Part shown: in pieces, positions 9,847-54,753 of the stretch | Layout of the letters: the number at the start of each line of letters is the position of its first letter | Position numbering within the stretch: the first letter of the stretch is position 1 | Source of the DNA: Candidatus Pyrohabitans jungbluthii | GTDB taxonomy: Archaea; Hydrothermarchaeota; Hydrothermarchaeia; Hydrothermarchaeales; BMS3B | Assembly (NCBI GenBank): GCA_002010065.2 | Contig: MTMD02000010.1 | Location: forward strand, 1-64,000 | Reading direction: 5' to 3' | Length of the DNA stretch: 64,000 nt | Program-made: the position numbers and the translations under genes | The notes under the pieces: model-generated | The model's input: the letters and a program-made list of their open reading frames with translations, nothing else | Told to the model about the DNA's origin: nothing | Databases searched by the model: none

Positions 9847-9877
9847 TTACCGGAACGAAGATTGCGGCGTGACGGAG
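9847..9877 (+). repeat. Short palindromic element, degenerate copy (33-bp type)
   Basis: TTACCGGAACGAAGATTGCGGCGTGACGGAG aligns with the polB-internal copy TTACCCGGAAGCGGAGCTTCCGGTGTGACGAAG. Confidence 0.6.
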
Positions 9878-9915
9878 TTGCCCGTCTCACGCGTTAGCGT
9901 GATAGGGTGACGAAG
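9878..9915 (+). repeat. Short palindromic element (long-hairpin type), tandem with the previous copy
   Basis: TTGCCCGTC-TCACGC-GTTA-GCGTGA-TA-GGGTGACGAAG; same ends as the other copies, perfect inner hairpin. Confidence 0.65.
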
Positions 9916-10040
9916 AAAGCGCTACCATATCGTGGATCTTATTCAGCTCGGAAGGGGTAATAGAGGCGGGGTAGGCGCCCCTATCCGGCGAAATCTATTT
10001 AAATATTCTGCTACTATGTGTAAGGAGGAGGTAGATAAGA

Positions 10041-10310
10041 ATGGCTGACGACAACGTCGTTTATATCGGCAACAAACCCGTGATGAACTACGTTTTGGCT
10101 GTAACAACGCAGCTGAACAGTGCCAATGAGGTTACAATAAAGGCAAGGGGTCAGGCAATCTCCAGAGCTGTTGACACCGCCGAAATAGTGAGAAACCGCT
10201 TCATGCCAGAGGTCAAGGTTAAGAGCATAGAGATAGGCACAGAGACTATAACGCGAGAGGATGGGAGCACCATCAACGTCTCCAGTATGGAGATTACCCT
10301 GGCCAAGTAA
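10041..10310 (+). CDS. albA: DNA/RNA-binding protein Alba
   Basis: [34 protein letters not shown]. Confidence 0.97.
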
Positions 10311-10357
10311 ATAAACCTCCCCTACTTTTTTTATACCACCTCGCCCATAGTTAGTTT

Positions 10358-12772
10358 ATGCCCCGCGTGGTTAAAGGTTTTCTTATCGACGCTGACTACG
10401 AAACCGTCGAGAGGAAAGCGCTTATCAGGCTGTACCTGCGTGATGAGCAGGGAAAGAGTTTTATCGCCTACGACGACTCCTTCTCACCCTATTTCTTCGC
10501 TCTTCCCGGCGATGAGCCGGAGAAGGTTAAGGATAGGATACTCACCTCAGACGAAGAGGGTATTATACAGAGCATTACCATAGAAGAGAAGAGGTTCTTT
10601 GGCAAACCCGTTACAGCGCTCCGCATCACTGTACGCCACCCTCAGGATGTGCCACGAATACGGGAGCGGATACGCCACCTTGAGGGCGTAGATGCGATAA
10701 ATGAACACGACATCCTATTCGTTAGACGCTACCTGATAGACCGCGGGATTAAACCTCTTACCTGGCTCACGATGGAGGTTGAAGAAAGGCAGGACAAGCT
10801 CTTTGTGCGCAGAATTGAGCAAGCGGAGGGTGAGTTACCCGGAAGCGGAGCTTCCGGTGTGACGAAGCCTCCAAAGCTAAGGGTGGCGGCTGTAGATATA
10901 GAGGTTTACAATCCAAAGGGGGCGCCGCGCAGCAAGCAGGATCCCATAATCATGGTGAGCATAGCTACAAACGACGGCATGGAGAAGGTGCTAACCTGGA
11001 AACCTATAGAAGGCGAAGCGTACGTTGAGACCCTAAGCAGCGAGGAGGAGATGCTGCTCAGGTTTGCGCAGCTTATGCAGGAAGGCGATTACGATGTGAT
11101 CGTGGGGTACAACACAGACAACTTCGACTTCCCGTACATTAAAGATAGGGTGAAGAAGCTTGGCATTTCCCTGCCCCTGGGCAGGCTAAACGCAGAGCTT
11201 GAGGTGAGCAAGAGAGGCCCGCTACCAGAGGCGAGAATTCGTGGCAGGGCGCATGTTGATTTATACCCCATAGTGAGGCGCCACGTTAAGCTGAACAGCT
11301 ATGTGCTCGAGAGCGTGGTGGAGGAGCTTCTTGGGATAAAAAAGGAGAAGATAGACGGGGATAAGCTCTTCACATACTGGGATGCTGGCGGGGAAAACCT
11401 TGCTATGCTCGCCAGGTATTCTCTTGAGGATGCGCGGGTTACCCTGAGCCTGGCTGAGAAGTTTCTCCCTCTCTACTACGAGCTCTCCACTATCGTGGGA
11501 CAAAGCCTAAACGACGTTGCGAGAATGACGTCTGGACAACTTGTCGAATGGCTGCTCATGCGGTTCGCTACGCCAAGAGGAGAACTAATTCCCAACCACC
11601 CCGCTGGCGAGGAGTATGCAGCGCGGGCGAGTGCGACCTACGTTGGTGGGTATGTACGTGAGCCGAAGCGGGGGTTAGTCGAGAACATAGCGGTGTTTGA
11701 CTTCCGTAGCCTTTACCCAAGTATAATTGTGAGCCACAACATAGACCCGAGTACGCTGATTATAGGCAACTGCGAGGAGAACCGCGCGCCAGGTTTAGAC
11801 TACTGCTTCTCCCTGGATAAGGAGGGATTCATACCCGAAATTTTAAAGGGGTTGATCCAGCGCAGGGCTGAGATAAAGCAGCAGATGAGGCAGGTAGGCG
11901 AGGATAAAAGAAGGATGCTGGACGTCGCTGAGAAGGCACTTAAAATCCTTGCAAACTCCTTCTATGGCTACATGGGCTACCCGCGAGCGAGGTGGTACCG
12001 CCGCGAGTGCGCAGAGAGCGTCGCCGCCTTTGCGAGGATGTACATAAAGCAAGTTATGCGCATCGCCGAGGAGGAGTTCAACCTGGAGGTGGTGTACGGC
12101 GATACAGATTCGCTCTTCGTGGTAATTCCGCCTGCTAAGCGTGAGGTGGTGCAGGAGTTTCTGCGCAAGGTCAACGCCAGCATGCCGGGCATGATTGAGC
12201 TGGAATTCGAGGGCTTTTATAAGCGAGGACTGTTTGTTACAAAAAAGAGGTATGCGCTTCTGAGTGAAGAAGGCAAGATGGTGGTCAAGGGCTTAGAGTT
12301 TGTGCGCCGCGACTGGGCACCGATAGCGAGAGAAACCCAGCGGGAGGTGCTTCGCATTCTGCTGGAGGAGGCAAACCCCGAGAAGGCGGCAAAGCTTGTT
12401 CGCGACGTTATTCAGCGAATACGTGAGCGCAGGGTAACTCTTGAGGACATAACAATATACACCCAGCTTACAAAGCGAATAAAGAGCTATAAAAGCTTAG
12501 AGCCCCATGTGGTGGCGGCGCAGAAGCTTAAGGAGCGCGGTCGCGAGGTGGCGCCTGGCATGATTATAGGATACATAATAACCAAGGGCGCAAAGGCGAT
12601 ATCACATCGCGCTCTGCCTGTGGAGTTCGCCAAGCTTGAGGATTATGACCCGGATTACTACATAGACAACCAGATCCTGCCCGCGATACAGCGCATATTC
12701 GAGGCGATAGGCTACACCCGGGATTACCTCAGGGAGGGGATTACTCAGACCAGCTTAAGCAAGTGGTTTTAG
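10358..12772 (+). CDS. polB: Family B DNA polymerase (PolB3-type), no intein
   Basis: Exo I DIE, Exo II YNTDNFD, Exo III YSLED, DFRSLYPS, KILANSFYGY, YGDTDS, C-terminal PIP-box QTSLSKWF. Confidence 0.98.
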   Translation: MPRVVKGFLIDADYETVERKALIRLYLRDEQGKSFIAYDDSFSPYFFALPGDEPEKVKDRILTSDEEGIIQSITIEEKRFFGKPVTALRITVRHPQDVPRIRERIRHLEGVDAINEHDILFVRRYLIDRGIKPLTWLTMEVEERQDKLFVRRIEQAEGELPGSGASGVTKPPKLRVAAVDIEVYNPKGAPRSKQDPIIMVSIATNDGMEKVLTWKPIEGEAYVETLSSEEEMLLRFAQLMQEGDYDVIVGYNTDNFDFPYIKDRVKKLGISLPLGRLNAELEVSKRGPLPEARIRGRAHVDLYPIVRRHVKLNSYVLESVVEELLGIKKEKIDGDKLFTYWDAGGENLAMLARYSLEDARVTLSLAEKFLPLYYELSTIVGQSLNDVARMTSGQLVEWLLMRFATPRGELIPNHPAGEEYAARASATYVGGYVREPKRGLVENIAVFDFRSLYPSIIVSHNIDPSTLIIGNCEENRAPGLDYCFSLDKEGFIPEILKGLIQRRAEIKQQMRQVGEDKRRMLDVAEKALKILANSFYGYMGYPRARWYRRECAESVAAFARMYIKQVMRIAEEEFNLEVVYGDTDSLFVVIPPAKREVVQEFLRKVNASMPGMIELEFEGFYKRGLFVTKKRYALLSEEGKMVVKGLEFVRRDWAPIARETQREVLRILLEEANPEKAAKLVRDVIQRIRERRVTLEDITIYTQLTKRIKSYKSLEPHVVAAQKLKERGREVAPGMIIGYIITKGAKAISHRALPVEFAKLEDYDPDYYIDNQILPAIQRIFEAIGYTRDYLREGITQTSLSKWF
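10835..10867 (+). repeat. Short palindromic element inserted in frame in polB (LPGSGASGVTK)
   Basis: 33 bp TTACCCGGAAGC-GGA-GCTTCCGGTGTGACGAAG with perfect 8-bp stem CCGGAAGC/GCTTCCGG; ends shared with four intergenic copies. Confidence 0.75.
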
Positions 12773-12823
12773 GGTTCAAATTGTACTTCAAAATGAAATT
12801 AAATTAGAAAATTGAAGAGATTC

Positions 12824-14302
12824 TTACGAAAACAGGCTGCTTGCCGCATTCAGCGACAGCGAGACAAAAGAGTCTGGGAAAACGCCGATGTAGATAACCA
12901 GAAGCGCTGCTACTACCAGTGCCACGCTCAGCAGCAGGGGCTCGCGCTCACGCTTTACCTCGGCTTCTGCGAAGTACATGTAGCGGATTACGCGAGCATA
13001 GTAGTACAGCGAGACCACGCTGTTGATTATGAGCAATATGCCAAGTATAAGATAAGCGCCGCCCGCAGCAATGCTTGCGGTGAGTATCATGAACTTGCTC
13101 ACGAAGCCTGCGAAGAAGGGTATCCCCGCCAAGGAGAGTAGGAATATGGTCATTGTCAGCGCAGTCACGGGAAGGCGCCTTCCCAGCCCAGCAAAGTCCT
13201 CAAGGTTGGAGCCTATCATATAGTAGCTCGCAGCCGCAACCGCGAGGAATGCCCCGCCCTTCATTATCGCGTGCGTAAGGATGTGGAGCAGGCCAGCGCC
13301 AATGCTGAGGTTGAGGTCCACCTGCGTCGAGGCGAGCAAAGCAAAGACTATGAGCACATAGCCGGCTTGGCCAATGCTGGAATAAGCAAGCATGCGCTTT
13401 ATGTTGGTCTGTGCCAGAGCAACGACGTTGCCCAGGGTCATGGTTATCGCAGCCAGAATAGCGAAGAGCAATGCCCATTCCTTAACAAGCGCCGGCATGG
13501 AGAGGGCGATTAAGAAGATGCGCAGCAGGGCTACGAAGGCCATCTTTTTGCTCGCGGCAGCGAGAAAGGCGCTCACCGGCGAGGGCGCACCCTGGTAGGT
13601 ATCGGGTGCCCACATGTGGAAGGGCACCGCAGCGACTTTATAACCGAAGCCTGCGATGAGGAAGACTACAGCCAAAATGAGCACCCAGTGGAACTCTGCA
13701 GTCTTAGGCAGAGCCTCTGCTATCGCATACAGGTTCGTGCTCCCGGTTAAGCCGTAGAGCAGGGACATGCCAAACACAATTAAACCTGAGGAGAAGGCAC
13801 CTATGACGAAGTACTTCATAGCCGCCTCTGTGCCAGTGCGGTTTTTCCTGAAGGCGGCTAAAGCGAAGGTGGAGATGCTCGCCAGCTCCACAGCGACGAA
13901 GAGGAGCACTAAATCAGCGGCCATGGCAGCGAACATCATTCCAAGCGTTGCGAAGAGTATGAGCGAGTAATACTCCCCCTTGTACTTATCCTTGCGGGTG
14001 GCATCGAGGGAACCCAGGATTACCAGAAGCGCCACCAGCAGAAACACCAGCTTGAAGAAAACCGCAAAGAGGTCAACGCGTATTAAGCCGGAGAAGAAGC
14101 TCACCTGAAGTGCCTGCTTCGCTGCTATGGCAGCGAGAAGTGATTTTGCCTGGGAGAAAACCATAGCGAGGGCAATACCCACGCCTACAAGACTGAGGTA
14201 GCCCAGAAATTCCTTATCGTCTTCGCGCAGGGTCATGTCTATGAAGATAACAGCCAGCGCAAATACTGCAATTACCAGCTCCGGCATAAGTGCTTCGAGC
14301 AT
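12824..14302 (-). CDS. nuoN: Complex I-like oxidoreductase subunit N (NuoN/FpoN)
   Basis: EAAMKYF, GYKVAAVPFHMWAPDTYQGAP, KRMLAYSS; operon position. Confidence 0.95.
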   Translation of the reverse strand: MLEALMPELVIAVFALAVIFIDMTLREDDKEFLGYLSLVGVGIALAMVFSQAKSLLAAIAAKQALQVSFFSGLIRVDLFAVFFKLVFLLVALLVILGSLDATRKDKYKGEYYSLILFATLGMMFAAMAADLVLLFVAVELASISTFALAAFRKNRTGTEAAMKYFVIGAFSSGLIVFGMSLLYGLTGSTNLYAIAEALPKTAEFHWVLILAVVFLIAGFGYKVAAVPFHMWAPDTYQGAPSPVSAFLAAASKKMAFVALLRIFLIALSMPALVKEWALLFAILAAITMTLGNVVALAQTNIKRMLAYSSIGQAGYVLIVFALLASTQVDLNLSIGAGLLHILTHAIMKGGAFLAVAAASYYMIGSNLEDFAGLGRRLPVTALTMTIFLLSLAGIPFFAGFVSKFMILTASIAAGGAYLILGILLIINSVVSLYYYARVIRYMYFAEAEVKREREPLLLSVALVVAALLVIYIGVFPDSFVSLSLNAASSLFS

Positions 14303-14303
14303 C

Positions 14304-15758
14304 TCAGATACCTCCTATTAACGCCACTATCGCTTGGGATGTGGTGCTTATCATATTCATCAGGGGCGCAGGATAGAGTCCCAGCAAGGTTATGAGTATA
14401 ACCAGAACAAGAACTGGCACTGCTTCGTGCCATGCAACGTCGCTGCGCGCGCTCTCAATGAGTTCGCTGGTAGCGCCAAACGCTGCACGCTGGAGCATCC
14501 ATAGATAATAACCTGCGGTAAGGGGCAACGAAAGCACTGCAAGGTAGGCAAGAGAGGAGAAGCTCTTGAAGAGCCCTAGGAGGATGCTGAGCTCAGCCAC
14601 GAAGCCGCTAAGCCCCGGTAAGCCCAGCGAAGCGAGTGAAGCGAACACCAGGACCCAGCCCAGGAAGGGCGCCTTGGTTATAAGCCCGCCTAGGTAGGGG
14701 ATCTCTCGCGAACGTGCTTTCTCAACAAGCATGCCTGTGAGGAAGAAGAGTAAAGCGACGATTAAGCCGTGGCTCACCATCTGGAATATCGCACCGTTTA
14801 TTCCGATTAAATTCAGGGACGCTATACCGAGAACAATAAAGCCCATGTGCGAGACGCTGGAGAAAGCCACCAGACGCTTTATATCCCGCTGTGCCAGAGC
14901 AGCGAAGGCAGCATAGAATACGCTCACAACCGCAAGCACGGCGATAGCATAGGCATAGCTCTGGAAGGTCTCAGGTAGAAGGGTGACGCCAATGCGGAGC
15001 AAGCCATAGGCACCCATCTTGGAGAGCAACCCAGCGAGGAGCACACTCACCGGCGTGGGTGCCTCGGTATAGGCATCTGGCAACCATGAATGGAAGGGCA
15101 CCAGGGGGATCTTGAAGGCAAAACCTATGAAGAGCAGGAGGAAGACAAAGCTCTTAAAGCCTGCATCTAGAGAGGCGAGGGTGTCTGAGATGGCGAAGAA
15201 GGAGAAGCTTCCCGCCTTGAGGTAGAGCAGTATGAAGCCAATAAACATGAAGAGGCTTCCCAAGTGGGTGTAGATGAGTATCTTCATGGCAGCATAGCTT
15301 CGCTTAGCTCCGCCCCAGCCGTTTATCAGGAAGAACGCGGGGATGAGCACAATCTCCCAGAAAACGTAGAAGAGGAAGAGGTCTAACGCAAGGAAGACGC
15401 CCATTAGACCGGCTTCCATGAACAGGAGCAGGGCGTAGTAACGCTTGGTGTTCGCCTCTATATTCCAGGAGGCAAGTATGGCTACGACAAAGAGCAGGGC
15501 AGTGAGCAGCACAAGCGAGAGGCTCATCGCATCCGCGCCCAGGGTGAAGGTAATCCCAAAGTCTGAAATCCACTCCCAAGCTTGAGCTGGGAACATCTCC
15601 TTCCCGCTCAGGAAGCTGTTCAGCGCCGCGAGGGAGACGAGCAGAGTGAGAAGCGACGTAGCGAAAGCTACAGAGCGCGCTTTGGCTATGCCATAGCGCT
15701 CAGCGAAGTAGCTCGCAAAGGCTCCTACGAATGGAATGGCAATGAGATAAGCCAGCAT
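14304..15758 (-). CDS. nuoM: Subunit M (NuoM/FpoM)
   Basis: LFYVFWE, FKIPLVPFHSWLPDAY, KRLVAFSSVSHMG, GFVAE. Confidence 0.95.
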   Translation of the reverse strand: MLAYLIAIPFVGAFASYFAERYGIAKARSVAFATSLLTLLVSLAALNSFLSGKEMFPAQAWEWISDFGITFTLGADAMSLSLVLLTALLFVVAILASWNIEANTKRYYALLLFMEAGLMGVFLALDLFLFYVFWEIVLIPAFFLINGWGGAKRSYAAMKILIYTHLGSLFMFIGFILLYLKAGSFSFFAISDTLASLDAGFKSFVFLLLFIGFAFKIPLVPFHSWLPDAYTEAPTPVSVLLAGLLSKMGAYGLLRIGVTLLPETFQSYAYAIAVLAVVSVFYAAFAALAQRDIKRLVAFSSVSHMGFIVLGIASLNLIGINGAIFQMVSHGLIVALLFFLTGMLVEKARSREIPYLGGLITKAPFLGWVLVFASLASLGLPGLSGFVAELSILLGLFKSFSSLAYLAVLSLPLTAGYYLWMLQRAAFGATSELIESARSDVAWHEAVPVLVLVILITLLGLYPAPLMNMISTTSQAIVALIGGI

Positions 15759-17605: not shown

Positions 17606-17606
17606 T

Positions 17607-17912
17607 TCACCACCTCAACTCCTTGATTTCACGCAGATTGACAGTGCGGAAGTTGCGGTAAAGAGCTAAGAGAATCGCCATACCAACGCCTGCCTCCGCG
17701 GCGGCTATTGCTATGGTGAAGGCAGCAAAAGCCTGACCACTCAGGTTGCCCAGGTAGCTTGAGAAAGCCACCAAATTAATATTAGCGGCGTTTAGCATGA
17801 GCTCAATGCTCATGAGCATTCTCACGGCGTTGCGCGAGGATAGCAAACCATAAGCGCCGATGGAGAAGAGCACCGTCGCCAGGAACACATAGTGGAACAC
17901 CGTAACGCTCAT
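17607..17912 (-). CDS. nuoK: Subunit K (NuoK/FpoK)
   Basis: LMSIELMLNAANINLV, AAAEAGVG. Confidence 0.95.
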   Translation of the reverse strand: MSVTVFHYVFLATVLFSIGAYGLLSSRNAVRMLMSIELMLNAANINLVAFSSYLGNLSGQAFAAFTIAIAAAEAGVGMAILLALYRNFRTVNLREIKELRW

Positions 17913-18873: not shown

Positions 18874-18874
18874 C

Positions 18875-19906: not shown

Positions 19907-19910
19907 GGTA

Positions 19911-21566: not shown

Positions 21567-21570
21567 GGCG

Positions 21571-22409: not shown

Positions 22410-22562
22410 GGTACCACCTTTCCGACTTTAAAGAATCAACAACCGCACTATATAATTACCAAGTGGTATAAAAATTTTTCCACCATCATAGTTTAAAGTT
22501 TATCAAACACCTTATTCTTTTCAGACGGATTCATATAATTTAAAATAATATTTAAAAAAATT

Positions 22563-32099: not shown

Positions 32100-32378
32100 A
32101 TGGTAGAAAAAGAGATAGTGGTAAAGGCGCTGAAGGAGATTATAGATCCTCATACTGGCATAAGCGTGTACGACATGGGGCTCATCAAGGACCTGGAGGT
32201 AAACGATGGCGAGGTCTCGCTAACTTTCGTGCCCTCCTCGCCCTTCTGCCCCCTCGGAGTGCAGCTCAGTATGCAGATAAAGGAGAAACTCGAAGGTATA
32301 GAGGGGGTTACAAAGGTTAAGGTGCGCGTCTCGGGGCATGTGCAGGAGAAAGAGCTCAACGAGATGCTCTGCAAGTAA
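32100..32378 (+). CDS. Metal-sulfur cluster assembly factor (DUF59/SufT/MIP18 family)
   Basis: LKEIIDP..ISVYDMGLI..SPFCP. Confidence 0.88.
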   Translation: MVEKEIVVKALKEIIDPHTGISVYDMGLIKDLEVNDGEVSLTFVPSSPFCPLGVQLSMQIKEKLEGIEGVTKVKVRVSGHVQEKELNEMLCK

Positions 32379-32508
32379 GGGCGCCGCACCCGCCCTTACC
32401 AACCCATCCTCACCATAAAGGACCAATTATCTGGTGAGACCTCCTAATTATAATCATCATCCCTGCCTCTAATGTGAAAGTGGCTCTTTAGGCAATATGG
32501 GATGATAT

Positions 32509-33058: not shown

Positions 33059-33130
33059 AGCTTAATTTATACCTGTGAATATGTGTTCCTGGAGGTCTCG
33101 CCAGCTCTTTCAGAGCTGGCTTCGACTTCC

Positions 33131-33156
33131 CTCGTCACCCTCACTTCGTCGGGTAA
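33131..33156 (-). repeat. Short palindromic element (27-bp type, 1-nt deletion) in the phoU leader
   Basis: Reverse complement TTACCCGACGAAGTGAGGGTGACGAG, near-identical to 54727-54753. Confidence 0.75.
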
Positions 33157-34184: not shown

Positions 34185-36023
34185 TTATCTGTCTTTCCCC
34201 TCAATAGGCAGCACCATGTAGAAAGTGGTGCCCTTTCCAAGACCAGATTCCACCCAAATTTTACCCTTGTGGGCCTCGACAATATACCTCGCCACCGCAA
34301 GACCAGTGCCGGTGCCACCGTAGCGTCGAGTTGGACTGGGGTCGAGCTGGGTGAGGGGCTTGAAAATATCTTCAAGCCTGTCTTTCGGGATACCTATTCC
34401 CGTGTCGCTCACCGCTATCTTCACCCAGCCGTTTTCCTTTGACACCCTTACTCTGACCTCGCCGCCAGTGCGGTTAAACTTTATTGCGTTGTCCAAGAGG
34501 TTTAAAATCACACGTTTCAGCTTAATGGGGTCAGCCACAATCTCACCGTCATAGTCCAGCTCCACCTCTATCTTCACGTTCTTTTCTCCTGCCATCTTCT
34601 CCTTCTCTTTAACCGCGCTGCTCACCATCTCTGCAAGGCTCACACGCTTTTGCTGTAGGGTGAGGTCACCCCGCTGAATTTTCGCCACCTGGATGAGGTC
34701 CTCAACAATATCATTAAGCCTGTAAAGCGCCTTAACCGCAGACTTGAGCTCATCCCTTCGCTCATTCTCGTCCTCCTCCATCATCGCAAGTTCAATAAAT
34801 CCCTTGGCTATGGTTATAGGCGTGCGAAGCTCGTGGCTCACGTTGGCTATTATGTTGCTCTTAAGCTCGTCTATCTCCCTAAGCTCCTCGTAGGCGTGCT
34901 GCAGCCGCTCATGTGCCTGCGCTATCTCCTCAGCCATGCGGTTAAAGGACCTTGCCAGTTCCCCAAGCTCATCTTCGTCTTCGAGGCGTCTGTCCTTTAC
35001 CCTAACCCGGAGGTCGCCCTTACTCATCCTCCGCGTCGCATCCACCAGTATGTTAATGGGCGTGATTATTTCCCTACCACCTAGGTAGCTCAGTCCCAGA
35101 GCCACCACAAAGCTCAGTACAGCCACCATGGCTATCGCCCTTTCAACACTCCCCATCAAGGCGGTGAACTCCTCCTCCCTCACGCCCACTGCTAGGGCGC
35201 CTACCACCTCGCCATCTAGGTTGCGGATGGGTTCACCGATGAACGCATAGGCAGGGCCATCTTTTATTTCCATGCTCCTGTGCACTCTCCCCGCCGCGAA
35301 GTCTTCCAGGGCATCGCCTGGAATCTCTCTACCAACAACGCTGCTGCCCTCTTCCCCTGAGATTGAGGATATCACATCTTTACCTTGAATAATGAGCATC
35401 TGCATTTCTGGAAGCTTTTCCCTTACAGAATCAGGCACCCAGCTGTCGCCGTTGAGCAGGTCCCCGGTGATTATAACCCCCAGGACATCTCCGCTGTCGT
35501 CCAGCACTGGGGTGGCGACCAGAAGCACAAGTCCATATTCACCCGCCATAGCTTCTATTCCCTCTTTTCTGAGAACATCCCATGGGAACAGCTCGGATGA
35601 TACTACGGGCTGCTTATTCTTAACTGCTCTTTCCACGATTTTGGCATGGTAGAAGATGTCACCTGTCTTCTCGCTTCCCAGCCTGGCGACTATTCTACCC
35701 TCTGGATTTACCACCATCCAGATGTCCACGTAGGGGCGGTACTTTTTCCACTCTCCCATCTGCATCCTGAGCGCTTCCGTATCCCCAGAGGCAATCCTGG
35801 CTTTGGTATGGCGTTCAGCAGCCGCTTGGAGCATTCCATACTTCATCTGCTCCCCCCTTACATAGAACTGTATCCACGCCAGCTCCAAGTCGTGACGCAG
35901 TTTTTGCTGAAGGCTTTCCTCAACCTTTGCTTTGGAAACAGAAATCGCCAGCATCGAGAGGGTCCCCAGGGGAATAATTGTTACCACAAGTAAGGTCAGC
36001 ATCAACTTTACCTTAATCTTCAT
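34185..36023 (-). CDS. Membrane sensor histidine kinase (Cache-HAMP-HisKA-HATPase)
   Basis: Two TMs flanking an extracytoplasmic domain; HAMP DELGELARSFN; NVSHELRTP; N, G1, F, G2 boxes. Confidence 0.93.
   Translation of the reverse strand: MKIKVKLMLTLLVVTIIPLGTLSMLAISVSKAKVEESLQQKLRHDLELAWIQFYVRGEQMKYGMLQAAAERHTKARIASGDTEALRMQMGEWKKYRPYVDIWMVVNPEGRIVARLGSEKTGDIFYHAKIVERAVKNKQPVVSSELFPWDVLRKEGIEAMAGEYGLVLLVATPVLDDSGDVLGVIITGDLLNGDSWVPDSVREKLPEMQMLIIQGKDVISSISGEEGSSVVGREIPGDALEDFAAGRVHRSMEIKDGPAYAFIGEPIRNLDGEVVGALAVGVREEEFTALMGSVERAIAMVAVLSFVVALGLSYLGGREIITPINILVDATRRMSKGDLRVRVKDRRLEDEDELGELARSFNRMAEEIAQAHERLQHAYEELREIDELKSNIIANVSHELRTPITIAKGFIELAMMEEDENERRDELKSAVKALYRLNDIVEDLIQVAKIQRGDLTLQQKRVSLAEMVSSAVKEKEKMAGEKNVKIEVELDYDGEIVADPIKLKRVILNLLDNAIKFNRTGGEVRVRVSKENGWVKIAVSDTGIGIPKDRLEDIFKPLTQLDPSPTRRYGGTGTGLAVARYIVEAHKGKIWVESGLGKGTTFYMVLPIEGKDR
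34289..34544. repeat. 256-bp block identical to 36799-37054 (HATPase region)
   Basis: Direct comparison; the ORF track also shows identical antisense ORFs at 34351 and 36861. Confidence 0.9.
34774..34878. repeat. 105-bp block identical to 37284-37388 (H-box region)
   Basis: Direct comparison; same 2510-bp offset. Confidence 0.88.
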
Positions 36024-36697: not shown

Positions 36698-39265
36698 TTA
36701 TCTCTTCCCTTCAACAGGCAACAAAACATAGAAGGTAGAGCCTTTTCCAAGCTCAGACTCCACCCAGATTTTGCCTCCATGCGCCTCGATTATGCGCTTC
36801 GCCACCGCAAGACCAGTGCCGGTGCCACCGTAGCGTCGAGTTGGACTGGGGTCGAGCTGGGTGAGGGGCTTGAAAATATCTTCAAGCCTGTCTTTCGGGA
36901 TACCTATTCCCGTGTCGCTCACCGCTATCTTCACCCAGCCGTTTTCCTTTGACACCCTTACTCTGACCTCGCCGCCAGTGCGGTTAAACTTTATTGCGTT
37001 GTCCAAGAGGTTTAAAATCACACGTTTCAGCTTAATGGGGTCAGCCACAATCTCGCCCTCGTAGGCAAGCTCTAACTCAACCTTCACATTCTTCTCCTTC
37101 GCCAACTTCTCCTTCTCCTTAACCACGAGACTTATCATTTCAGCGATGCTAAGCCGCTTTTTCTCAAGGGTTAAATCTCCCCGCTGAATGCTCGCCACTT
37201 CTATAAGGTCTTCCACAATATCATTGAGCCTGTGAAGCGCCCCAACCGCAGACTTGAGCTCACTCCTGCGCTCCTCTTCGTCGTCCTCCATCATCGCAAG
37301 TTCAATAAATCCCTTGGCTATGGTTATAGGCGTGCGAAGCTCGTGGCTCACGTTGGCTATTATGTTGCTCTTAAGCTCGTCTATCTCCTTAAGCTCCTTG
37401 TAGGCGCGCTCCAGCTTTTGCTGCGCCTCCTTAAGCGGAGTTATATCTACAAATGATGCAACAACGCCCTCCACACTACCGTTCTCGTCGCGCATCGCTG
37501 AGAGGGATAGCTGCACAGTCTTACCGGAGTGGAGTGTAGCCTCCATGGTCACAGGCTCATCTGCCACCTCGCCGCTGAGTAGCTTTCGCACCGTTTCCTC
37601 TACCTGAGCTTCCATGAAGTGTTCTCCTATGCTCGTGCCCAGAATCTCCCTCTCGCTCTTCTCCAGGTATGCCATGGCGCGCCGGTTGAAAAAGTTTATA
37701 AGCCCGTCGCCGTTGGTGGTGAGCACCGCCGCGGGTACGGTATGTACGATGCTCTCCAGCTCTCTGAAGAAATCCTGAAGTTTCCTCCGCGATTCTTCAA
37801 GGATGACCTCCGCTCGCCTGCGCTCAACCGCTGCTGTTATCATATTTGCCACCGACTGCAGGAAGTCAACATCCGCAGAGGTGAATCTTCTCCTCCGCTT
37901 AGAGTGCACCCCCATTACCCCATAAACCTTATCCCCATAAACCATTGGCACGCTTATCCCGGAGACTATGCCGTGCTCTAGGAGCAGCGCTGGTGCTCTG
38001 AAGCGTTTCTCCTTGGTGAGGTCTTCCACAATCACCGGTTTGCGTATTTGCAGAGTATAACCTGCCTGGGATTCAATCCCGGTGCTCACAGTAGCTTTAC
38101 CTACCACTCCATCACGCCAACCAACACCTGCGACGAGTCGAAGCTTATCCCCTTCAAGCCACAGAATTTTGCAGAACTCCGCATTCATCGCTTTTGCCAC
38201 AAGCTCAACGGCTTCCTGCATTAGCCTTTCAATCTCTGCTCCGCTCAGGAAAAGCTCACCAACCCTCGCCACCACCGCATGCTGGGCAGCCCTCCTCCTT
38301 GCCGCCTTCTCCGCCTGCCTCTTCTTCTCCTCATCCTCAATAGCCTTAAGCGCAAACGCAAGGTCTTCACTTACCCGCATGAGCAGCTTAATCTCCTCCT
38401 CCGTAAACACCTCGCTGGTATCGGAGTAAACACTGAGTGCGCCGTACACGCGGTCGCCGTAAACTAGGGGCACCGACACAGAAGATATGTATCCCCTCTT
38501 CAGGGCCTCCTCGCGCCAAGGTTTAAAGCGTGGGTCATTGGGGATGTCCCTCATAACCTGAGGTTTCTTCGTCTTTATCGCCATGCCCGTTGGCCCCATC
38601 CCCGTCTCGGAGTCGTCATAGGTTATGCGCACAGATTCGAGATAACCTTCCTCAATCCCCGCCTTCGCTACTGGCACAACTTCCTTGGTATCCTCCTTTA
38701 CCAAGCCTACCCAGACCATTTTGTATCCTCTAACCCTGTGAAGAGTCTCACAAACCTTTTTAAAGAGGGTGTTCGCATCTTTTTCGCGGGTAATAGCGCT
38801 GTTTATCTCGTTTATAGCTTTTAGCACGCTGTTTAAGTGCTCTATCTCTTTTTCAGCACGTTTCTGAAAGGTTACATCCCTGTTTATCTCCACTATTCCA
38901 ATAATCTTCCCACCCTTATCCCTCAGGGGAGTTGCAGAGATTTCAGAAGTCCAGGGTTCCCCTGACCCTTTTATATGTTCGTGGATGAGACCTTTAACTT
39001 CGCCTTTCTCCAGTACCCCCTCTATTGTGCATGGCACGTCCTTGCACGGCTCGCTTTTTCCATGGGCAACCTTATAACATTTTCTGCCTATGAGCTCTTC
39101 CCCTTTGCGTCCGAAAAGTTCCAGAGCGGCAGGGTTCGCCTCGATAATTGTGTAGTCGAGGTCGATGACGATTACCCCCTCGCCCATGGCGTTGAACACA
39201 TCCTCCAGAAACTCACTCCTCTCTGCTTTTGAGGGCAGTTTTTTCAAATCCTCATGTACCTCCAT
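36698..39265 (-). CDS. Cytoplasmic sensor histidine kinase (PAS-GAF-GAF-PAS-HisKA-HATPase)
   Basis: PAS ([17 protein letters not shown]), two GAF ([14 protein letters not shown]; SQAGYT..SGISVP), PAS, SHELRTP, G boxes. Confidence 0.94.
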
Positions 39266-42887: not shown

Positions 42888-42965
42888 CTCAACTCCTTCA
42901 AGTAGATAGGAACCACCAGCGGGTTCCTATTACCTCCTGCAACCATATGATTCATAATATCCACC

Positions 42966-46329: not shown

Positions 46330-46332
46330 AGG

Positions 46333-47331: not shown

Positions 47332-47461
47332 GGTGGTAGAGTCTGATGGCAGGTATTTAAAAGTAACGAAAGTGTTTATAAATTCTGTTTAAAGTTACAC
47401 CGGCGGCAAACCTTTATCTACGCTGAGAAATAATAACTGGATCCTGAAGGAAGGTGAAAAC

Positions 47462-48634: not shown

Positions 48635-48682
48635 TAAAACAGTCAGGAACATTAGCCGGAGGCTTCACCAAGCCTACGTGGT

Positions 48683-49759: not shown

Positions 49760-51561
49760 GCTCCCCCTCCAAGCAAAGAGTAATTGTAAAGAAGGTGAGC
49801 GACGCCTGAAAGCGTTAAGAGGAGTAAAAACCTCCTGTTTATCCTCCCTCTGCTCCACACCAGTCCCAGAGCAGCTGTGGAAGTTAACACCACATGAAGC
49901 AAAAGAGCATTGAGCAGATATCCCTTGAGGAAAATAACATAGCCAAACAGGGACTGGGAAATCTGGGCAAGGGTTACAAGAGCTATCAGCTTTTCTCCGA
50001 TAAAGAAACCTGAACCGCAGAACGCGCCAAGGAGTACTGTTCTACCAGGGCTCAATTTGGAATACCTGACAACTCCAGCCACGAAGGCTATCTTGATAAC
50101 CTCCTCTAAGAAGGCAGAGAGGGTAAGCATCAGGTAGAGTGATAGTGGGAGAGGCACCTGGAATAGAGCCACTATAAATATTAATTCAAGCATGTACGCC
50201 GCTACCGATGCCAAAATTCCAAAGAATACGCCTGCAATTAACCTCTCTCCACCCTTCTCCCACATTATATTAATGCCATAAAAAATTTTGTCAAAGATGC
50301 CCTTCTGGGAAAAGAGTACCTCCTCTCTGAACATCAGAGTCCCCATGAAAAATATAATTGCGCTCATTGCAAATAAAGGGAGAGTTGTAAAAATATATTT
50401 GGAAAATTCTACTTTTTCGCCATCCATAACATTTACTATTATTGAAACAGGAGATATGTTGCTCACCGCATGTATATTCACAAACATAGCCGGAAAGAAT
50501 AGGAAAGAGAAGAATATTACTGAAATAAAAATTATAATAAAGGAATTTTCTTTATAGCTTCTGCTCAATATGGACACCAGGAAAGAAAGGGACAGTAAGA
50601 AAAGAATAACCGGAATCAGTATCAAGATTATCTCAACTTCCAGCTTCTTTCTCAGAATCAGCGTTATTGCTATCACACTGATCAAAGTTAATAAAAAGTG
50701 CGCAAGGGTTTTGCCAATTACCACATCCCCTGCGCTGAGAGGAGATGTCAGGAGCAGCTCAGCACGGCGATTTGTTCTCTCTTCCAGCATGCTCGAAGAA
50801 TAAAACTGCGAAAACAGGTATATTGGAAAGGCAAGCAGAAAAGTTAGAAGGACTGATTTAAAAGGCAATGGGGGAGAGAAAATAGCTGGAAGGGTTATCC
50901 TCGACTCTTCCTGAGTTATTCCACGAACATCAAACCTCGCCTTCCTGTACTTCTCAATCAGATTCACAACTTCAGAGCGGGGCAGTGATTTTGGGTTGAG
51001 ACTCTCAACCCTGCCCCCATCCGGGAAAGATTCAACTGCAGCTGAAACCTTCTGCTCCTCAGGCTGAGCGGAGGTGAAGTACTGGAACTCCTCGCTGCGT
51101 TTTAAATAATGAGTCTGAATCCATAGCGGGAAGGCATAGTTGACATGCTCTTCATCCACAGCAAAGATGGTCAGGGTTTTATACAGCCTTAAAGCCTGGG
51201 AGAGGGCATCCAGGGCTGCGAGCGACCTTTTAGAATCAGTATAAATTATCTTCGTCTCACCATTGGAGACCACAAGCAAATCCAGCTTTCCTCCTTCAAG
51301 CAGAACCTCCCCTCCATCTTTTATGTCCACTAGCCTGAACCTTCCGTCGTATTCGAGGGCAGATTTTATTATCCTGTCTTCTCCAGATATTCCGGCTGAA
51401 TACAGAGCTTGTCCAGATGATGGCGAGGAGATAGATAGTAAAAACAGGGCTATAAAAGAGGCGAAGAGTAAAAGAGTGAGAATAGTAACATTGAAGCCAA
51501 ATTTTGGCTTTGAACGTTTAATTTCCCATTTTGCTATGATCAGGATATTTTTAAAATTCAT
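49756..51561 (-). CDS. ABC-2 permease fused to a PrsW-family intramembrane protease
   Basis: EERTNRRAELLLTSP..GK permease motif; C-terminal EEVIK, GFFIGE, LLH, HLLYN PrsW motifs. Confidence 0.82.
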   Translation of the reverse strand: MNFKNILIIAKWEIKRSKPKFGFNVTILTLLLFASFIALFLLSISSPSSGQALYSAGISGEDRIIKSALEYDGRFRLVDIKDGGEVLLEGGKLDLLVVSNGETKIIYTDSKRSLAALDALSQALRLYKTLTIFAVDEEHVNYAFPLWIQTHYLKRSEEFQYFTSAQPEEQKVSAAVESFPDGGRVESLNPKSLPRSEVVNLIEKYRKARFDVRGITQEESRITLPAIFSPPLPFKSVLLTFLLAFPIYLFSQFYSSSMLEERTNRRAELLLTSPLSAGDVVIGKTLAHFLLTLISVIAITLILRKKLEVEIILILIPVILFLLSLSFLVSILSRSYKENSFIIIFISVIFFSFLFFPAMFVNIHAVSNISPVSIIVNVMDGEKVEFSKYIFTTLPLFAMSAIIFFMGTLMFREEVLFSQKGIFDKIFYGINIMWEKGGERLIAGVFFGILASVAAYMLELIFIVALFQVPLPLSLYLMLTLSAFLEEVIKIAFVAGVVRYSKLSPGRTVLLGAFCGSGFFIGEKLIALVTLAQISQSLFGYVIFLKGYLLNALLLHVVLTSTAALGLVWSRGRINRRFLLLLTLSGVAHLLYNYSLLGGGA

Positions 51562-51664
51562 TTTTAATCAGAATTACTGAGGAATTTCTTAACCTTTTTG
51601 TTTCGATAGCTGAAAAATAATGCTTAAATAATCTGCTTCGAAAAACTAAGAAAGAGGTATTTTT

Positions 51665-52543
51665 ATGTTAAAAGTTGAGAATGTATCAAAAAAGTATGGT
51701 GATTTTCAAGCTGTTGATAATATATCTTTCAGAATAGATAAAGGGGAGATATTTGGAATAGTCGGGCCAAATGGTGCCGGGAAAACCTCAATTATTAAAA
51801 TGATAGTCGGTCTAATAGAGCCGTCGGAAGGTGAAATCTGGATTTCACACTACAACATCAAAACCATGAGTGAGGAGGCGAAACGGCTGATAGGCTACCT
51901 GCCCGAGGAGAGTCCTGTATATGAGGATATGACAGCCATCGAATACCTGGATTTTTTCGGAGAGATATATGGAGTAGAAAGGCAGGAGTTAAAAGAAAGA
52001 GTGGATGCTATTTTAAATGATTTAAATCTTAAACACAGGAACAGGAAGCTTGGTGAGATGTCCAAGGGTATGAGGCGTAAGGTCGCGATTGCCCGCTCCC
52101 TCATAAACAACCCCTCTGTGCTTGTTTACGACGAGCCCACTTCTGGCTTGGACCCCATAACCTCCAACTATGTAATGGAATATATCAGGAAATTAAAGGG
52201 TGAAAAAACCATACTTTTAACCACCCACAACCTCTACCAGGCAGAGAAAATCTGCGATAGGATACTGATACTGAAGGACGGCAGAATCGTGGCTGCTGGA
52301 CCTGTGGAGGAGATTAAGCAGAGGTTTGGAGGGGTGAAATATGCGCTCTGGTTTAGATTAAAAAACATTTCAGGAATTGATCTGCCAGTGGAAAATAGAA
52401 ATGGGTGCAGAGTTGCTTTTAGTTCTAACATTGAAGATATCAATGCTCTCGCTAGCGAGGTGTCCCGAAGGGGCGGAGAGATTGTAAAGATAGAACACCA
52501 TCCCTCAAATCTTGAAGAGGTGTTCTTGGAGGTTGTTAAATAG
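51665..52543 (+). CDS. ABC transporter ATP-binding protein
   Basis: GPNGAGKT, MSKGMRRK, VYDEPTSGLDP, TTH. Confidence 0.95.
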   Translation: MLKVENVSKKYGDFQAVDNISFRIDKGEIFGIVGPNGAGKTSIIKMIVGLIEPSEGEIWISHYNIKTMSEEAKRLIGYLPEESPVYEDMTAIEYLDFFGEIYGVERQELKERVDAILNDLNLKHRNRKLGEMSKGMRRKVAIARSLINNPSVLVYDEPTSGLDPITSNYVMEYIRKLKGEKTILLTTHNLYQAEKICDRILILKDGRIVAAGPVEEIKQRFGGVKYALWFRLKNISGIDLPVENRNGCRVAFSSNIEDINALASEVSRRGGEIVKIEHHPSNLEEVFLEVVK

Positions 52544-52618
52544 GTTATACCCAAAATTATAAATATTCTCCTTTTACTTAGGGTGCTATGAAATGACATA
52601 GCACAGGAGGTGCCGAGG

Positions 52619-53956
52619 TTGAGAAACGCATGGAAGATTCTATTGCCGCTTATGCTTCTGGCGCTTATTGCAGGATGCGCCCAGAAGGCAGAGGAGGGGG
52701 CACCTAAGGCAGCTGGTGCAGAGGCTCCAGAGGCGATACGCATTGGTCTTGTGGCGCCACTCACCGGCCCAGCAAGCACCACCGGCAACGACATGTTAGA
52801 AGCGGCTGAGCTTGCAGTGGAGGAGATCAACGCCCAGGGCGGAGTTTATGTGAAGGAGTATGGCAAGAAGATTCCGCTCAAGCTCTACAAGGGCGACACA
52901 GAGACTTCTACACAGGGCGGTGTTAAAGCCGTGACAAAGCTCATAACCGAAGACAAGGTGCATGTGCTTGTGGGCGGATTCTCGAGCAGCATTACCTACG
53001 CTGATCAGGTTGTTGCGGCAGAGCACAAGATGCCATTCATAATCACCGGCGCGAGCTCACCCGTTATTACCCGAAGAACCGACATAGACACGTCGACCTT
53101 CTTCCACCACTGCCCCACTACAGAAGACTACTCCGAGGCGACAATGCTCTTCGTCGACCAGGTCATAAGGCCGGCGATAAACGCCAAGTTTGGCTTCAGC
53201 GAGGATAGACCGCTTCGCCTGGCGATGGTGTACCAGGAGGGCAAGTACGGTGAGGGCGTTCTCGAGGGTGTGAAGAAGGCGATTGAGAAGCACGGGCTCA
53301 AGATAACCATCGTAGCCGAGGAGAAGTTCAAGCGCGGAGAGAGCGACTTCCGCACCATACTGACGGCGGTTAAAGCGGCGAAGCCAGACGTGGTGTACCC
53401 CGCCACCTTCCTGAACGAGCAGGTGCCACTCGTTACGCAGGGCAGGCGCGACGTGGGCCTGAACACCATTTATCTTGCGGTTGAGGCAACGGACGACCCG
53501 GACTACTACCGCGACGTTGGCGAGTGGGGCGACTACTCCATACAGGAGAGCAGATTCTCACCATACACCACGCCACCAACGCCAGTAGGCGAGAGAGCCC
53601 AGCGCTTCAAGGAAAACTTCTACAAAAAATACGGGGACTACCCGAGCATGATGGGCGCTTCAACCTATGAGGGCATATACATCGCCGCCAAGGCGATTGA
53701 GATGGCAGGCAGTCTGGACAAGGCGAAGATCGTGGAAGCGCTCAACCAGCTGGAGATGGAGGAGATAGTGGAGCCCATGAAGGGCGGCAAGATATCCTTC
53801 AAGAACCAGTACCACGAGAGCAAGTTCGAGCTGTACATGCAGCAGCTTCGCTACGACCCCAACATAGGCGAGCCTCGCCCTGTGATAGTCTGGCCAGACA
53901 ATCTGAAGGAGGCGGACTTCGAACTTCCGCCGTGGTATGAGCCGGGACCGCCCTAG
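52619..53956 (+). CDS. Branched-chain amino acid-type ABC substrate-binding lipoprotein (LivJ-like)
   Basis: Lipobox LIAGC; IRIGLVAPLTG; AVEEINAQGG; SDFRTIL..PDVVY. Confidence 0.9.
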   Translation: MRNAWKILLPLMLLALIAGCAQKAEEGAPKAAGAEAPEAIRIGLVAPLTGPASTTGNDMLEAAELAVEEINAQGGVYVKEYGKKIPLKLYKGDTETSTQGGVKAVTKLITEDKVHVLVGGFSSSITYADQVVAAEHKMPFIITGASSPVITRRTDIDTSTFFHHCPTTEDYSEATMLFVDQVIRPAINAKFGFSEDRPLRLAMVYQEGKYGEGVLEGVKKAIEKHGLKITIVAEEKFKRGESDFRTILTAVKAAKPDVVYPATFLNEQVPLVTQGRRDVGLNTIYLAVEATDDPDYYRDVGEWGDYSIQESRFSPYTTPPTPVGERAQRFKENFYKKYGDYPSMMGASTYEGIYIAAKAIEMAGSLDKAKIVEALNQLEMEEIVEPMKGGKISFKNQYHESKFELYMQQLRYDPNIGEPRPVIVWPDNLKEADFELPPWYEPGPP

Positions 53957-53968
53957 GGCGGCTCTCTC

Positions 53969-53985
53969 TATTTTCTCTCTTTTTT
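53969..53985 (+). terminator. Oligo-T archaeal terminator after the SBP gene
   Basis: TATTTTCTCTCTTTTTT downstream of the stop. Confidence 0.5.
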
Positions 53986-54038
53986 AGGACGGTATCTTTT
54001 TCAGCTTATTCTGCATAATATTAAGCGGAGGTGGAGAG

Positions 54039-54710
54039 ATGAAGATAACCTGGCACGGGCATGCTTGCTTTGAGCTTGTGGGAAGCAAACGTGTACTCAT
54101 TGATCCCTTCATCACCGGCAACCCGCTTGCAAAGGTTAAACCTGAGGAGCTTTCGCCGGATGTGCTGCTGATAACCCATGGGCATGAAGATCACCTGGGC
54201 GACGCCGTGGCGATATCCAAGCGTGCCAAACCAAAGATCGCCGTGATTCACGAGATAGCGGTTTTCCTGCAGGAGCAGGGTATCGAGGCGGAGGGGATGA
54301 ACTTCTATGGCTCGGTGGATTTAGATGGGGTGAAGGTTACCATGGTGCCTGCGCTGCACTCCAGCAGCTACGCAGGGCGCTACATGGGCGACGCCTACGG
54401 TTATGTGGTTGAGATGGACGGCATTAAGGTATACCACGCGGGCGACACAGGTATCTTCGGAGACATGAAGCTCATAGGCGAACTTTTTTCGCCAGATATC
54501 ATGCTGGTACCAGTGGGCGACAGGTACACCATGAGCCCACAAATAGCCGCCAAAGCGGTGGAGCTGGTCTCGCCAAAGATTGCGATACCAATGCACTTCG
54601 CCACATTCCCGGTGCTTGTGAGCAGCGCCGCTGACTTCAAGCGCCTCGTGGAAGAACGCAGCAAGACTGAAGTTGTGGTTTTAGAGCCAGGCGAGAGCTA
54701 CGAGCTTTAG
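54039..54710 (+). CDS. Metallo-beta-lactamase-fold hydrolase (UPF0173)
   Basis: ITWHGHACF, LIDPF, THGHEDHLGD, YHAGDTG, PMH. Confidence 0.92.
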   Translation: MKITWHGHACFELVGSKRVLIDPFITGNPLAKVKPEELSPDVLLITHGHEDHLGDAVAISKRAKPKIAVIHEIAVFLQEQGIEAEGMNFYGSVDLDGVKVTMVPALHSSSYAGRYMGDAYGYVVEMDGIKVYHAGDTGIFGDMKLIGELFSPDIMLVPVGDRYTMSPQIAAKAVELVSPKIAIPMHFATFPVLVSSAADFKRLVEERSKTEVVVLEPGESYEL

Positions 54711-54726
54711 CTCAGCTTTTTTTAAG

Positions 54727-54753
54727 TTACCCGAATGAAGTGAGGGCGACGAT
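54727..54753 (+). repeat. Short palindromic element (27-bp type)
   Basis: TTACCCGAATGAAGTGAGGGCGACGAT, directly after a T-tract terminator and an AG. Confidence 0.75.

Follow-up and report, generated by a model that had tools for sequence, protein, structure and literature searches.

A stretch of 64,000 nucleotides from the archaeon Candidatus Pyrohabitans jungbluthii (GenBank assembly GCA_002010065.2, contig MTMD02000010.1, positions 1 to 64,000; hereafter the window) carries five copies of a hairpin element of 27-38 nt. These copies most probably belong to a lineage-specific family of mobile, non-autonomous miniature insertion elements that resemble the repetitive extragenic palindromic sequences (REPs) of bacteria. 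The source genome, referred to here as G000, has a size of 1.99 Mb distributed over 15 contigs (C1-C15, the window being contig C10), a G+C content of 51% and a completeness rating of 99.95%. Its closest relatives used for comparison are four congeners, G001, G004, G003 and G002, whose family B DNA polymerases (PolB) share 99%, 94%, 84% and 81% identity, respectively, with that of G000. The flanking sequences of G000 and G001 are 85-95% identical at the nucleotide level over the stretches compared, and the two genomes are thus near enough for alignment and distant enough for differences to be seen. Positions relative to genes rely on calls based on open reading frames (ORFs) in G000 (2095 genes, 90% coding). 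Coordinates given without a contig name are those of the window.

Each unit consists of TTRCCC, a variable palindromic core, GGGTGACG and a terminal RAG. TTRCCC pairs with GGGTGA (U-A, U.G, A-U or G.U, then three C-G pairs), so that the entire unit forms a single hairpin followed by a short single-stranded 3' tail. Three classes of cores share these ends. Class 1 is one continuous hairpin with 11-12 paired positions, including the fixed U.G, and loops of 3-5 nt. Class 2 has an outer stem, conserved internal mismatches (GTCTC facing GATAG) and an inner stem-loop, while class 3 is reduced to the 6-bp outer stem closed by an 11-nt loop. The best conserved part is GACG, found in 23 of 24 aligned class-1 units (the last one having GATG) and in all matches to the strict unit pattern, TTRCCCGN{8,28}GTGACGRAG.

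The mobility of these units is revealed by orthologous sites. At least 11 such sites differ between congeners, either by a precise insertion of 30-38 nt or by a whole array, and filled and empty states occur in both directions between congeners. The presence/absence polymorphism expected by the sequence-only reading of this DNA is therefore found. For example, the 33-nt unit inserted in the PolB gene is present in G000 and G001, and G004, G002 and G003 show an exact 33-nt gap; the 11 residues that it encodes occur in 2 of the 28 PolB rows covering the site. In the same way, the gene of a protein with a tRNA_bind domain (C15 37942-38295) carries a unit that is missing, as an exact 30-nt gap, from G004, G003 and G002 and, as a 9-residue gap, from G005. 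Since neither of these two sites is filled in all outgroups, deletion from an ancestral filled state is contradicted for both. A membrane protein gene on C4 is filled in G000 and G001 and shorter in G004. A RecJ/GAN-like DHH protein encoded on C8 is 8-10 residues longer in G000 than in G004, G003 and G005, at a variable loop. A Hel308-like helicase gene contains, towards its C-terminal end, an older insertion now decaying: the copy can be recognised in G000, has diverged in G001 and G004, and is lacking in G002, G003 and G005.

Conversely, several sites are empty in G000. G001 carries a five-unit array at the position of C13 8201/8202, 33 nt at C8 ~195055 and 37 nt at C13 ~4958. G004 has 34 nt at C11 ~12228, within a 7-nt spacer between two genes. 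In the window itself, G003 has a 38-nt class-2 unit exactly at 32387-32388 (minus strand), a site that falls within a copy of another palindromic repeat, the second family described below. When 14 loci from genomes other than G000 were compared with G000, 4 were shared, 5 were clean empty sites, 1 differed in the number of units, 2 were rearranged and 2 had no alignable counterpart. At seven clean filled/empty junctions, no target duplication was detected and the insert corresponds exactly to the unit. One contig from run X7, about 98% identical to the window, is devoid of positions 10830-10856 (27 nt), which two GGTG microhomologies flank. The PolB copy is thereby shortened by 27 nt, its 3' tail remaining in frame; in this single contig, the loss resembles a secondary deletion that spans the hairpin and keeps the reading frame.

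The number of copies is far above what chance would provide. The regular expression proposed by the sequence-only reading gives 56 matches in G000, against 7-28 (mean 18.7) in ten third-order Markov simulations. Weight matrices for both ends, built from 31 seed units, give 59 matches for 5.7 expected at a threshold of 20 and 54 for 2.0 expected at a threshold of 22 (3 simulations), that is, 10-25 times the simulated background. The strict pattern has 26 matches in the same genome and its control, the pattern read backwards, has none. Defining a good copy as a pair of ends recognised by the weight matrices (listed from a score of 18) with a fold of at most -6 kcal/mol leads to 53 copies at 43 loci (35 singles, 6 doublets and 2 triplets), of which 37 belong to class 1, 13 to class 2 and 3 to class 3; some few of them are probably chance matches. 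Two weight-matrix hits, C2 488975 in sense and C11 31635 in antisense orientation, lie far inside coding sequence and were not recovered by the covariance model; they were treated as probable chance matches and kept out of the in-gene count. The length is divisible by 3 in 31 of the 53 copies, which are not independent of each other, and this count stems from the dominance of two sub-lengths, 30 and 33 nt.

A chance pattern or an assembly artefact as the origin of the family thus appears practically negligible. It is true that short-read contigs often break at units, with loose ends at 9873, 9922, 10833/10834 and 10864/10867 of the window, as would be expected of an artefact. However, besides counts far above the simulations, the same units are found at the same sites in the separate genomes G001 and G004 and in contigs assembled from the runs of different studies. 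The PolB copy is spanned without any gap by contigs from runs X3, X5 and X6.

The family is limited to three to four genomes of one genus among the 61 searched. The strict pattern was found 26 times in G000, 24 times in G001, 4 times in G004 and once in G003; it was found neither in G002 nor in the other 56 genomes, which were drawn from all levels between the family and the domain, order and class included. The control with the reversed pattern is essentially empty. A covariance model of class 1 (R1), searched in 41 genomes, gave 30 matches in G000, 41 in G001, 8 in G004 and none in G003, in G002 or in the other 36. The abundance of units falls with the PolB identity to G000 and therefore tracks relatedness. 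The family has spread recently in one deep-sea archaeal group. Sequence collections were also scanned with a 16-mer junction motif, which is too short for collections of these sizes. It matched 64 viral stretches and at least 119 metagenome stretches (80 listed, L149-L228). Loci L085 and above were rescanned with a loosened unit pattern; in this rescan, none of the 64 viral stretches carries a unit. Among the metagenome matches listed, L207 alone carries a real unit, identical to one of G001, and the loosened-pattern matches at L194, L209 and L226 look like chance.

To evaluate the hairpin, 24 distinct class-1 units taken from G000, G001 and G004 were aligned and folded with 12 pairs. In this alignment, 95.1% of the cells are paired, versus 82.3% in column shuffles and 38-48% with slid partners. 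Two-sided changes affect 6 of the 12 pairs (30 cells), and each one-sided change in the stem gives a G.U on the TTACCC strand. The covariation score was reached by none of 500 shuffles; such counts are not probabilities, the units being related, and the slid controls, which keep this relatedness, still fail. Furthermore, among 69 distinct units, the TTACCC strand folds better than its complement in 57 cases, equally in 1 and worse in 11. The 69 units contain 85 G.U pairs versus 4 A.C mismatches, a ratio dominated by one inherited U.G pair. The compensatory changes and the strand-specific wobble indicate that the structure is preserved in single-stranded nucleic acid, for one of the two strands.

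The insertion sites obey a simple rule. The base preceding the unit is G at 38 of the 43 loci, and position -2 is a purine at 37 of them. The sequence-only reading had noticed that three of the window copies directly follow an AG. This observation stands, and the rule is now refined to a purine-G before the insertion point, without target duplication. The units themselves end with AAG, GAG or TAG in 49 of the 53 copies, and this RAG end belongs to the element. As the end of a unit is itself a target, units of mixed classes abut in head-to-tail arrays with a spacer of zero. Such arrays occur at 8 of the 43 loci, only one inverted pair being known (C2 248564/248606). The presence of TGA within 12 nt upstream at 14 of the 43 loci (17% in the background, p=0.01) was not relied on, since several of these loci are paralogous composites.

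These junctions could also be read as traces of site-specific recombination. In that case, a palindrome would be split when a recombinase of the tyrosine or serine type inserts a unit, circular or folded, at G^N pseudo-sites. Where units abut, the sequence GGGTGAC-GRA-G^TTRCCC forms an imperfect inverted repeat of 7 bp with a G^TT crossover, which resembles the G^TT point of attC/attI sites in integrons. The frequent G before the unit and the TT with which all units start agree with this proposal; the complementarity of the ends would follow automatically from a split palindromic site, and the exact abutment of mixed units would be cassette-like. In addition, G000 encodes one tyrosine recombinase (C6 ~73764-74972) and one protein with a resolvase domain (C8). 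However, a double-stranded circle of 30 bp would be sterically implausible, no common overlap of 2 nt or more is left flanking the insert, and the ends of the units would seem to share only GTTR with the boxes of integron attC sites (RYYYAAC/GTTRRRY), which have extrahelical bases and lie beside an IntI integrase. The resolvase gene is found in G000, in G002 (0 strict units) and in G003 (1 strict unit) but not in the unit-bearing G001 and G004, so that its presence does not follow the abundance of units. Paralogues of the tyrosine recombinase, only 36-48% identical, exist in every congener, the unit-free G002 among them; in G001, one paralogue adjoins a tRNA in the manner of an ordinary integrase. 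The second match to PF00589 is a false positive, a DEAD-box helicase. Overall, mobility by site-specific recombination is considered unlikely.

Many units are nested in other palindromic repeats: the stem or loop of the second family (~45 nt), a 26-nt hairpin, or the hairpin foot of a repeat linked to tRNA fragments. The latter was hit at the same position by two independent insertions, of units of different classes, in paralogous copies (C14 20302 in G000 and locus L042 in G001), which argues for a site preference. Some composites of a unit and its host repeat recur, one at three loci (C1 61892, C7 50616 and C11 21858) and another at two (C2 239945 and C15 15152). Each of these composites probably traces to one event, and the nesting counts are not independent.

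Such composites raise the question whether single units move at all. The units could be immobile and spread by duplication, recombination or gene conversion of larger mosaic blocks, comparable to bacterial interspersed mosaic elements (BIMEs), combined with slippage in the arrays. The recurrence of the same unit type in the same host repeat is consistent with this, as are the copy number of the arrays, which differs between congeners, the polymorphism of the second repeat family and the existence of a chimeric unit. The latter (C8 334105-334138), located in the middle of a three-unit array, associates a class-2 5' half and a class-1 3' half joined at their shared GCGAAGC and suggests recombination between units. 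However, complete 30-38-nt units stand alone, without other repeat sequence, in the PolB gene, in the tRNA_bind gene and at C11 ~12228 and C8 ~195055. Block duplication cannot account for such lone units in unique conserved genes or spacers, and as the general explanation of the family it is most unlikely.

Most loci (38/43) are intergenic or located at a gene edge. Among these 38, 12 lie between divergent genes, 19 between unidirectional genes and 7 between convergent genes, these three types of gaps representing 31.3%, 50.2% and 18.5% of the intergenic length. In the unidirectional gaps, 9 units are in sense and 10 in antisense orientation. The placement is as predicted by neutral insertion and removal from genes.

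The entry into genes announced by the sequence-only reading was also recovered, as five in-frame copies, checked against orthologs, in conserved genes: those of PolB, the RecJ/GAN-like protein, the Hel308-like helicase, the tRNA-binding protein and the membrane protein. All are 30 or 33 nt long, sense, and read in one of the two sense frames free of stop codons, and they occupy tolerant linkers or termini; with n=5, the bias towards the sense orientation is suggestive. Three further units provide the final residues and the stop codon of a class I LysRS, a ThiF-family protein and a TPD-motif protein. The PolB gene (10358-12772, plus strand; DNA_pol_B 4e-73, DNA_pol_B_exo1 1e-37) harbours its class-1 unit of 33 nt at 10835-10867, on the plus strand, in frame and sense according to the ORF translation and the alignment of the congeners. 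It encodes LPGSGASGVTK in the linker that precedes the DIE motif of the exonuclease. This linker varies between lineages, and solved polymerases of Thermococcales align on either side of residues 135-173, not across them. Three of the five in-gene hosts (PolB, RecJ/GAN-like, Hel308-like) are replication or repair proteins, a post-hoc category with small numbers.

The conserved structure might instead point to a motif selected by the host, either an RNA hairpin ending or stabilising transcripts or a protein binding site, whose mobility would be secondary. Compensatory changes keep the hairpin, with G.U on one strand only, and Di Nocera et al. (PMC3733652) see in the same one-strand feature of bacterial REPs a hint of a role as RNA. 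Furthermore, the unit at C8 191594-191625 stops 3 nt short of a tRNA gene, upstream of it and on the same strand, at a place where G001 has three units; by its position, it would be transcribed and belong to the pre-tRNA leader. Such a role is nevertheless very unlikely for the family: units are randomly oriented relative to flanking genes, their location tracks intergenic length with no preference for 3' ends, and some lie inside coding sequence. Close congeners differ in whether they carry them at sites that are conserved in other respects, and they were found neither in G002 nor in any other genus searched. No Rfam family matches them either: at the gathering score, only a tRNA was matched in the window and, at E<=1, the sole match over bases 9750-10950 scored 18.7 bits, which is the chance level. 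The units would rather behave as selfish DNA under purifying selection, with no sign of a host function.

If the units are mobile elements, as is preferred here, their transfer might involve a single-strand chemistry of the HUH type, a tentative proposal whose chances are judged somewhat below even. The strand-specific structure, the lack of target duplication and the similarity between the (G)RAG end and the purine-G target are the reasons for a single-strand model. Moreover, a 30-bp unit would seem too short for a double-stranded circle or for a synapse of two ends, which favours the same route. The element would move as a folded single DNA strand. Cuts would fall behind its 3'-terminal (G)RAG and behind a similar purine-G of the target, and the strand would be rejoined, by a route comparable to the peel-and-paste of HUH-type transposases. 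A single hairpin could guide both cuts. The enzyme would act in trans and could be of an unrecognised kind or be a DNA-processing enzyme of the host.

A mechanistic parallel is offered by IS200/IS605 elements and their gene-less derivatives, the palindrome-associated transposable elements (PATEs). These insert 3' of a short sequence without target duplication and carry subterminal hairpins whose structure is strand-specific. The units resemble them in the absence of target duplication, in insertion 3' of a short sequence, in the subterminal hairpin and in the strand-specific structure. However, they are single hairpins of ~30 nt instead of two ends separated by hundreds of bases, and G000 has no TnpA or TnpB.

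Several observations weigh against a family of mobile elements. First, no mobilising enzyme was found in G000 despite its completeness rating, and no transposition intermediate has been observed. The Y1_Tnp/RAYT domain (PF01797) has no match in G000, its control matching in 6 of 14 genomes, and neither TnpB (PF07282), DDE_Tnp_1 nor GIY-YIG was found there; IS110 and reverse transcriptase were found in none of the five congeners searched. The control of the search for IS91/Y2 (PF04986) had no match in any genome, and this search is hence uninformative. Second, no two of the 53 copies are identical, so that no very recent burst is visible. Third, in part of the spread, what dispersed may have been larger mosaics instead of single units. 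Lastly, elements of the IS200/IS605 type are expected to show a replication bias, and the orientation of the units shows no signal relative to local GC skew (25 of 43 agree, Mann-Whitney p=0.20) or to the majority gene strand (26 of 43), which is a weak objection.

Other attempts at locating the enzyme were equally negative. Whole-genome searches for six transposase or nuclease families detected none on contig C10, and a scan for the HUH motif plus tyrosine in all called G000 genes of 90-450 aa gave none. The genes of the unit-rich region of C2 (236-252 kb), of which the first 70 residues per ORF were read, have an ordinary metabolic or housekeeping look, no family search having been made. The sequence-only reading had described a trans-mobilised, REP-like micro-element able to enter genes. 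Its REP-like nature, its mobility and its entry into genes are retained, whereas mobilization in trans can only be supposed, no HUH/RAYT or GIY-YIG gene having been found.

Among the systems described so far, the closest kind is that of the CGTC-tagged REPs of bacteria, of which the present family is an archaeal variant and not a new category. The CGTC-tagged REPs, which include RPE-4 and RPE-6 of Rickettsia and dRS3 of Neisseria, are reported by Di Nocera, De Gregorio and Rocco 2013 (PMC3733652) from bacterial phyla only. As described there, an unpaired CGTC (or TGTC/CCTC) lies at one end of a palindrome with an 8-9-bp stem and a 4-5-nt loop. The same study states that these REPs mostly form head-to-head dimers, rarely clusters, and favour the 3' ends of genes, that no dedicated transposase is known for them and that intragenic copies are in frame, notably in replication and repair genes (PMC3733652).

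The two groups share a size of 20-40 bp, families of 20-100 units and a patchy, lineage-specific distribution. On the bottom strand, the archaeal unit reads CTY-CGTC-ACCC...GGGT-AA, with the tag directly before the stem and a short unpaired tail opposite. In both cases no transposase has been found and in-gene copies are in frame, 3 out of 5 being in replication or repair genes here. In contrast to the CGTC REPs as they are described there, the present units have an archaeal host, stems of 10-12 bp with a fixed T.G, loops of 3-5 nt and three core classes on the same ends; they abut in head-to-tail arrays and show no preference for convergent or 3' intergenic positions. With ~10 conserved bases, a common descent could hardly be read from this similarity.

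The units also recall the REPIN-RAYT systems, by their short non-autonomous hairpin flanked by a conserved tetranucleotide and by the single-strand HUH chemistry proposed for both. However, every feature that defines these systems is lacking: the units have GTAG at neither end, their doublets are direct instead of inverted and no RAYT/Y1 gene, which would be single-copy and flanked by the repeats, accompanies them. REPINs are stated to be undetected in archaea, and the IS200 type is given as the sole Y1 subclass of Archaea in another study (PMC6006769). Repeats fused into protein genes are reported in Methanocaldococcus jannaschii (Suyama 2005, cited in Delihas 2008, PMC2229807); by this brief description, they resemble the present family as an archaeal family located inside protein genes. 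The units cannot be classified as miniature inverted-repeat transposable elements (MITEs): target-site duplications are lacking and the 6-7-bp complementarity of the ends is simply the base of the hairpin. The small dispersed repeats (SDRs) of cyanobacteria, reportedly described by Elhai et al. in 2008, are said to be very small, with conserved flanks around a variable palindromic centre, and to be nested without target duplication. Unlike the present units, they have a bacterial host, and their ends are unrelated.

The sequence-only reading had also suggested that the family was possibly undescribed in this lineage, and no such repeats appear among the matches listed from a non-exhaustive search of the Hydrothermarchaeota literature. 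A more far-reaching and rather doubtful proposal is that Archaea would here have their first replicator system of the REP type. Its enzyme would not belong to Y1/RAYT and would be an unrecognised transposase of single-stranded DNA or a replication or repair enzyme of the host working on folded single strands, the 3' tail of the unit mimicking the target and seeding the arrays. Under this proposal, the share of in-gene copies in replication and repair proteins (three of five) would mirror the one reported for bacterial REPs and may mark, rather than chance, the places where single-stranded DNA meets the mobilising activity. REP-like hairpin repeats are a long-standing puzzle, and this family is a small and clean case, with about 50 copies in a 2-Mb genome nearly devoid of insertion sequences and in few species of one genus. 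From the many exact filled and empty sites, the ends and the target can be read, as can the lack of duplication, which makes the search for the enzyme tractable. The main value of the family is thus to provide a compact and well-delimited case for finding the mobiliser of REP-like elements devoid of transposase. In addition, essential archaeal replication proteins tolerate selfish insertions of 10-11 residues, which bears on annotation and alignment in uncultured lineages.

Other kinds of structured elements were compared with the units. By eye, the positions of G.A and A.G misfit a K-turn or K-loop (the L7Ae site) in both orientations, and the boxes of C/D or H/ACA small RNAs are absent. A bulge-helix-bulge intron spliced from the PolB mRNA was likewise rejected by eye, since the flanks are unconserved and the motif cannot form. 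A CRISPR array was dismissed because the units abut without spacer and their cores differ; the CRISPR repeat of G000 is unrelated. An array of the CRISPR kind does exist at C15 93978-94271, with a 30-nt repeat and a 66-nt period, and is unrelated in sequence to the hairpin elements.

The five copies of the window were found where the sequence-only reading had placed them, within 1 nt (one starts at 33130 and not at 33131); its three core types, its three copies following AG and its four copies ending in AG proved correct when the sequences were read again. Besides the PolB copy, a degenerate class-1 unit of 31 nt with a TTACCGG start lies at 9847-9877 on the plus strand (weight-matrix score 24.1, fold -8.5 kcal/mol). 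It is the first of a two-unit head-to-tail array located between a thioredoxin-like ORF and an Alba gene. It is abutted, with a spacer of zero, by a class-2 unit of 38 nt at 9878-9915 on the same strand (score 27.7, fold -17.1 kcal/mol), which is made of TTGCCC, GTCTC, a 6-bp stem-loop, GATAG and GGTGACGAAG, and whose core is nearly identical to others at C7 24378 and in G003. The fourth copy, at 33130-33156 on the minus strand, is a class-3 unit of 27 nt with a short core devoid of inner stem (score 24.8). It is intergenic, upstream of an AbrB/PhoU-like gene, and the long ORF that overlaps it (GTG start at 33075) probably has an over-extended start. The last copy, at 54727-54753 on the plus strand between a metallo-beta-lactamase-fold gene and a radical-SAM gene, is a decayed class-3 unit of 27 nt, recognised by its likeness to the class-3 consensus only (score <18), in which GCGACG replaces GTGACG and the RAG tail is absent.

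G000 also contains several other repeats. The second palindromic family consists of units of ~45 nt ending in a hairpin with a 9-bp stem and two loop variants, sometimes in tandem. About 17 copies are intact (17 of 24 rows of a loose pattern, judged by eye), including 9949-9984 (plus strand) and 32375-32415 (minus strand) in the window, and C1 53845, C2 21010, C2 118850, C11 48172/48272 and C14 189037, among others. About half of these units have an A/T-rich, TATA-like box within 10-20 nt and a gene on the same strand 35-60 nt further. This family is polymorphic too, a unit of G001 being missing at C13 ~4958 of G000. A third repeat, the 26-nt hairpin, has at least four copies (42906-42933 in the window, C2 406560, C7 48038 and C12 40695). 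Its further copies at C2 239945 and C15 15152 hold a hairpin element, which sits on the 3' side of their loop.

A fragment of a tRNA 3' end followed by a shared repeat of ~90 nt occurs in four to six copies (C1 122961-123048, C5 86071, C8 94855-94992, C12 8044-8159 and C14 20403) and looks like attachment sites of integrated elements. Finally, an exact 70-nt repeat is present in the window at 34801-34870 and 37311-37380, with similar sequences at C14 21226, C11 38836, C12 9019 and C8 184067; it reads like the H-box region of putative paralogous histidine kinase genes.

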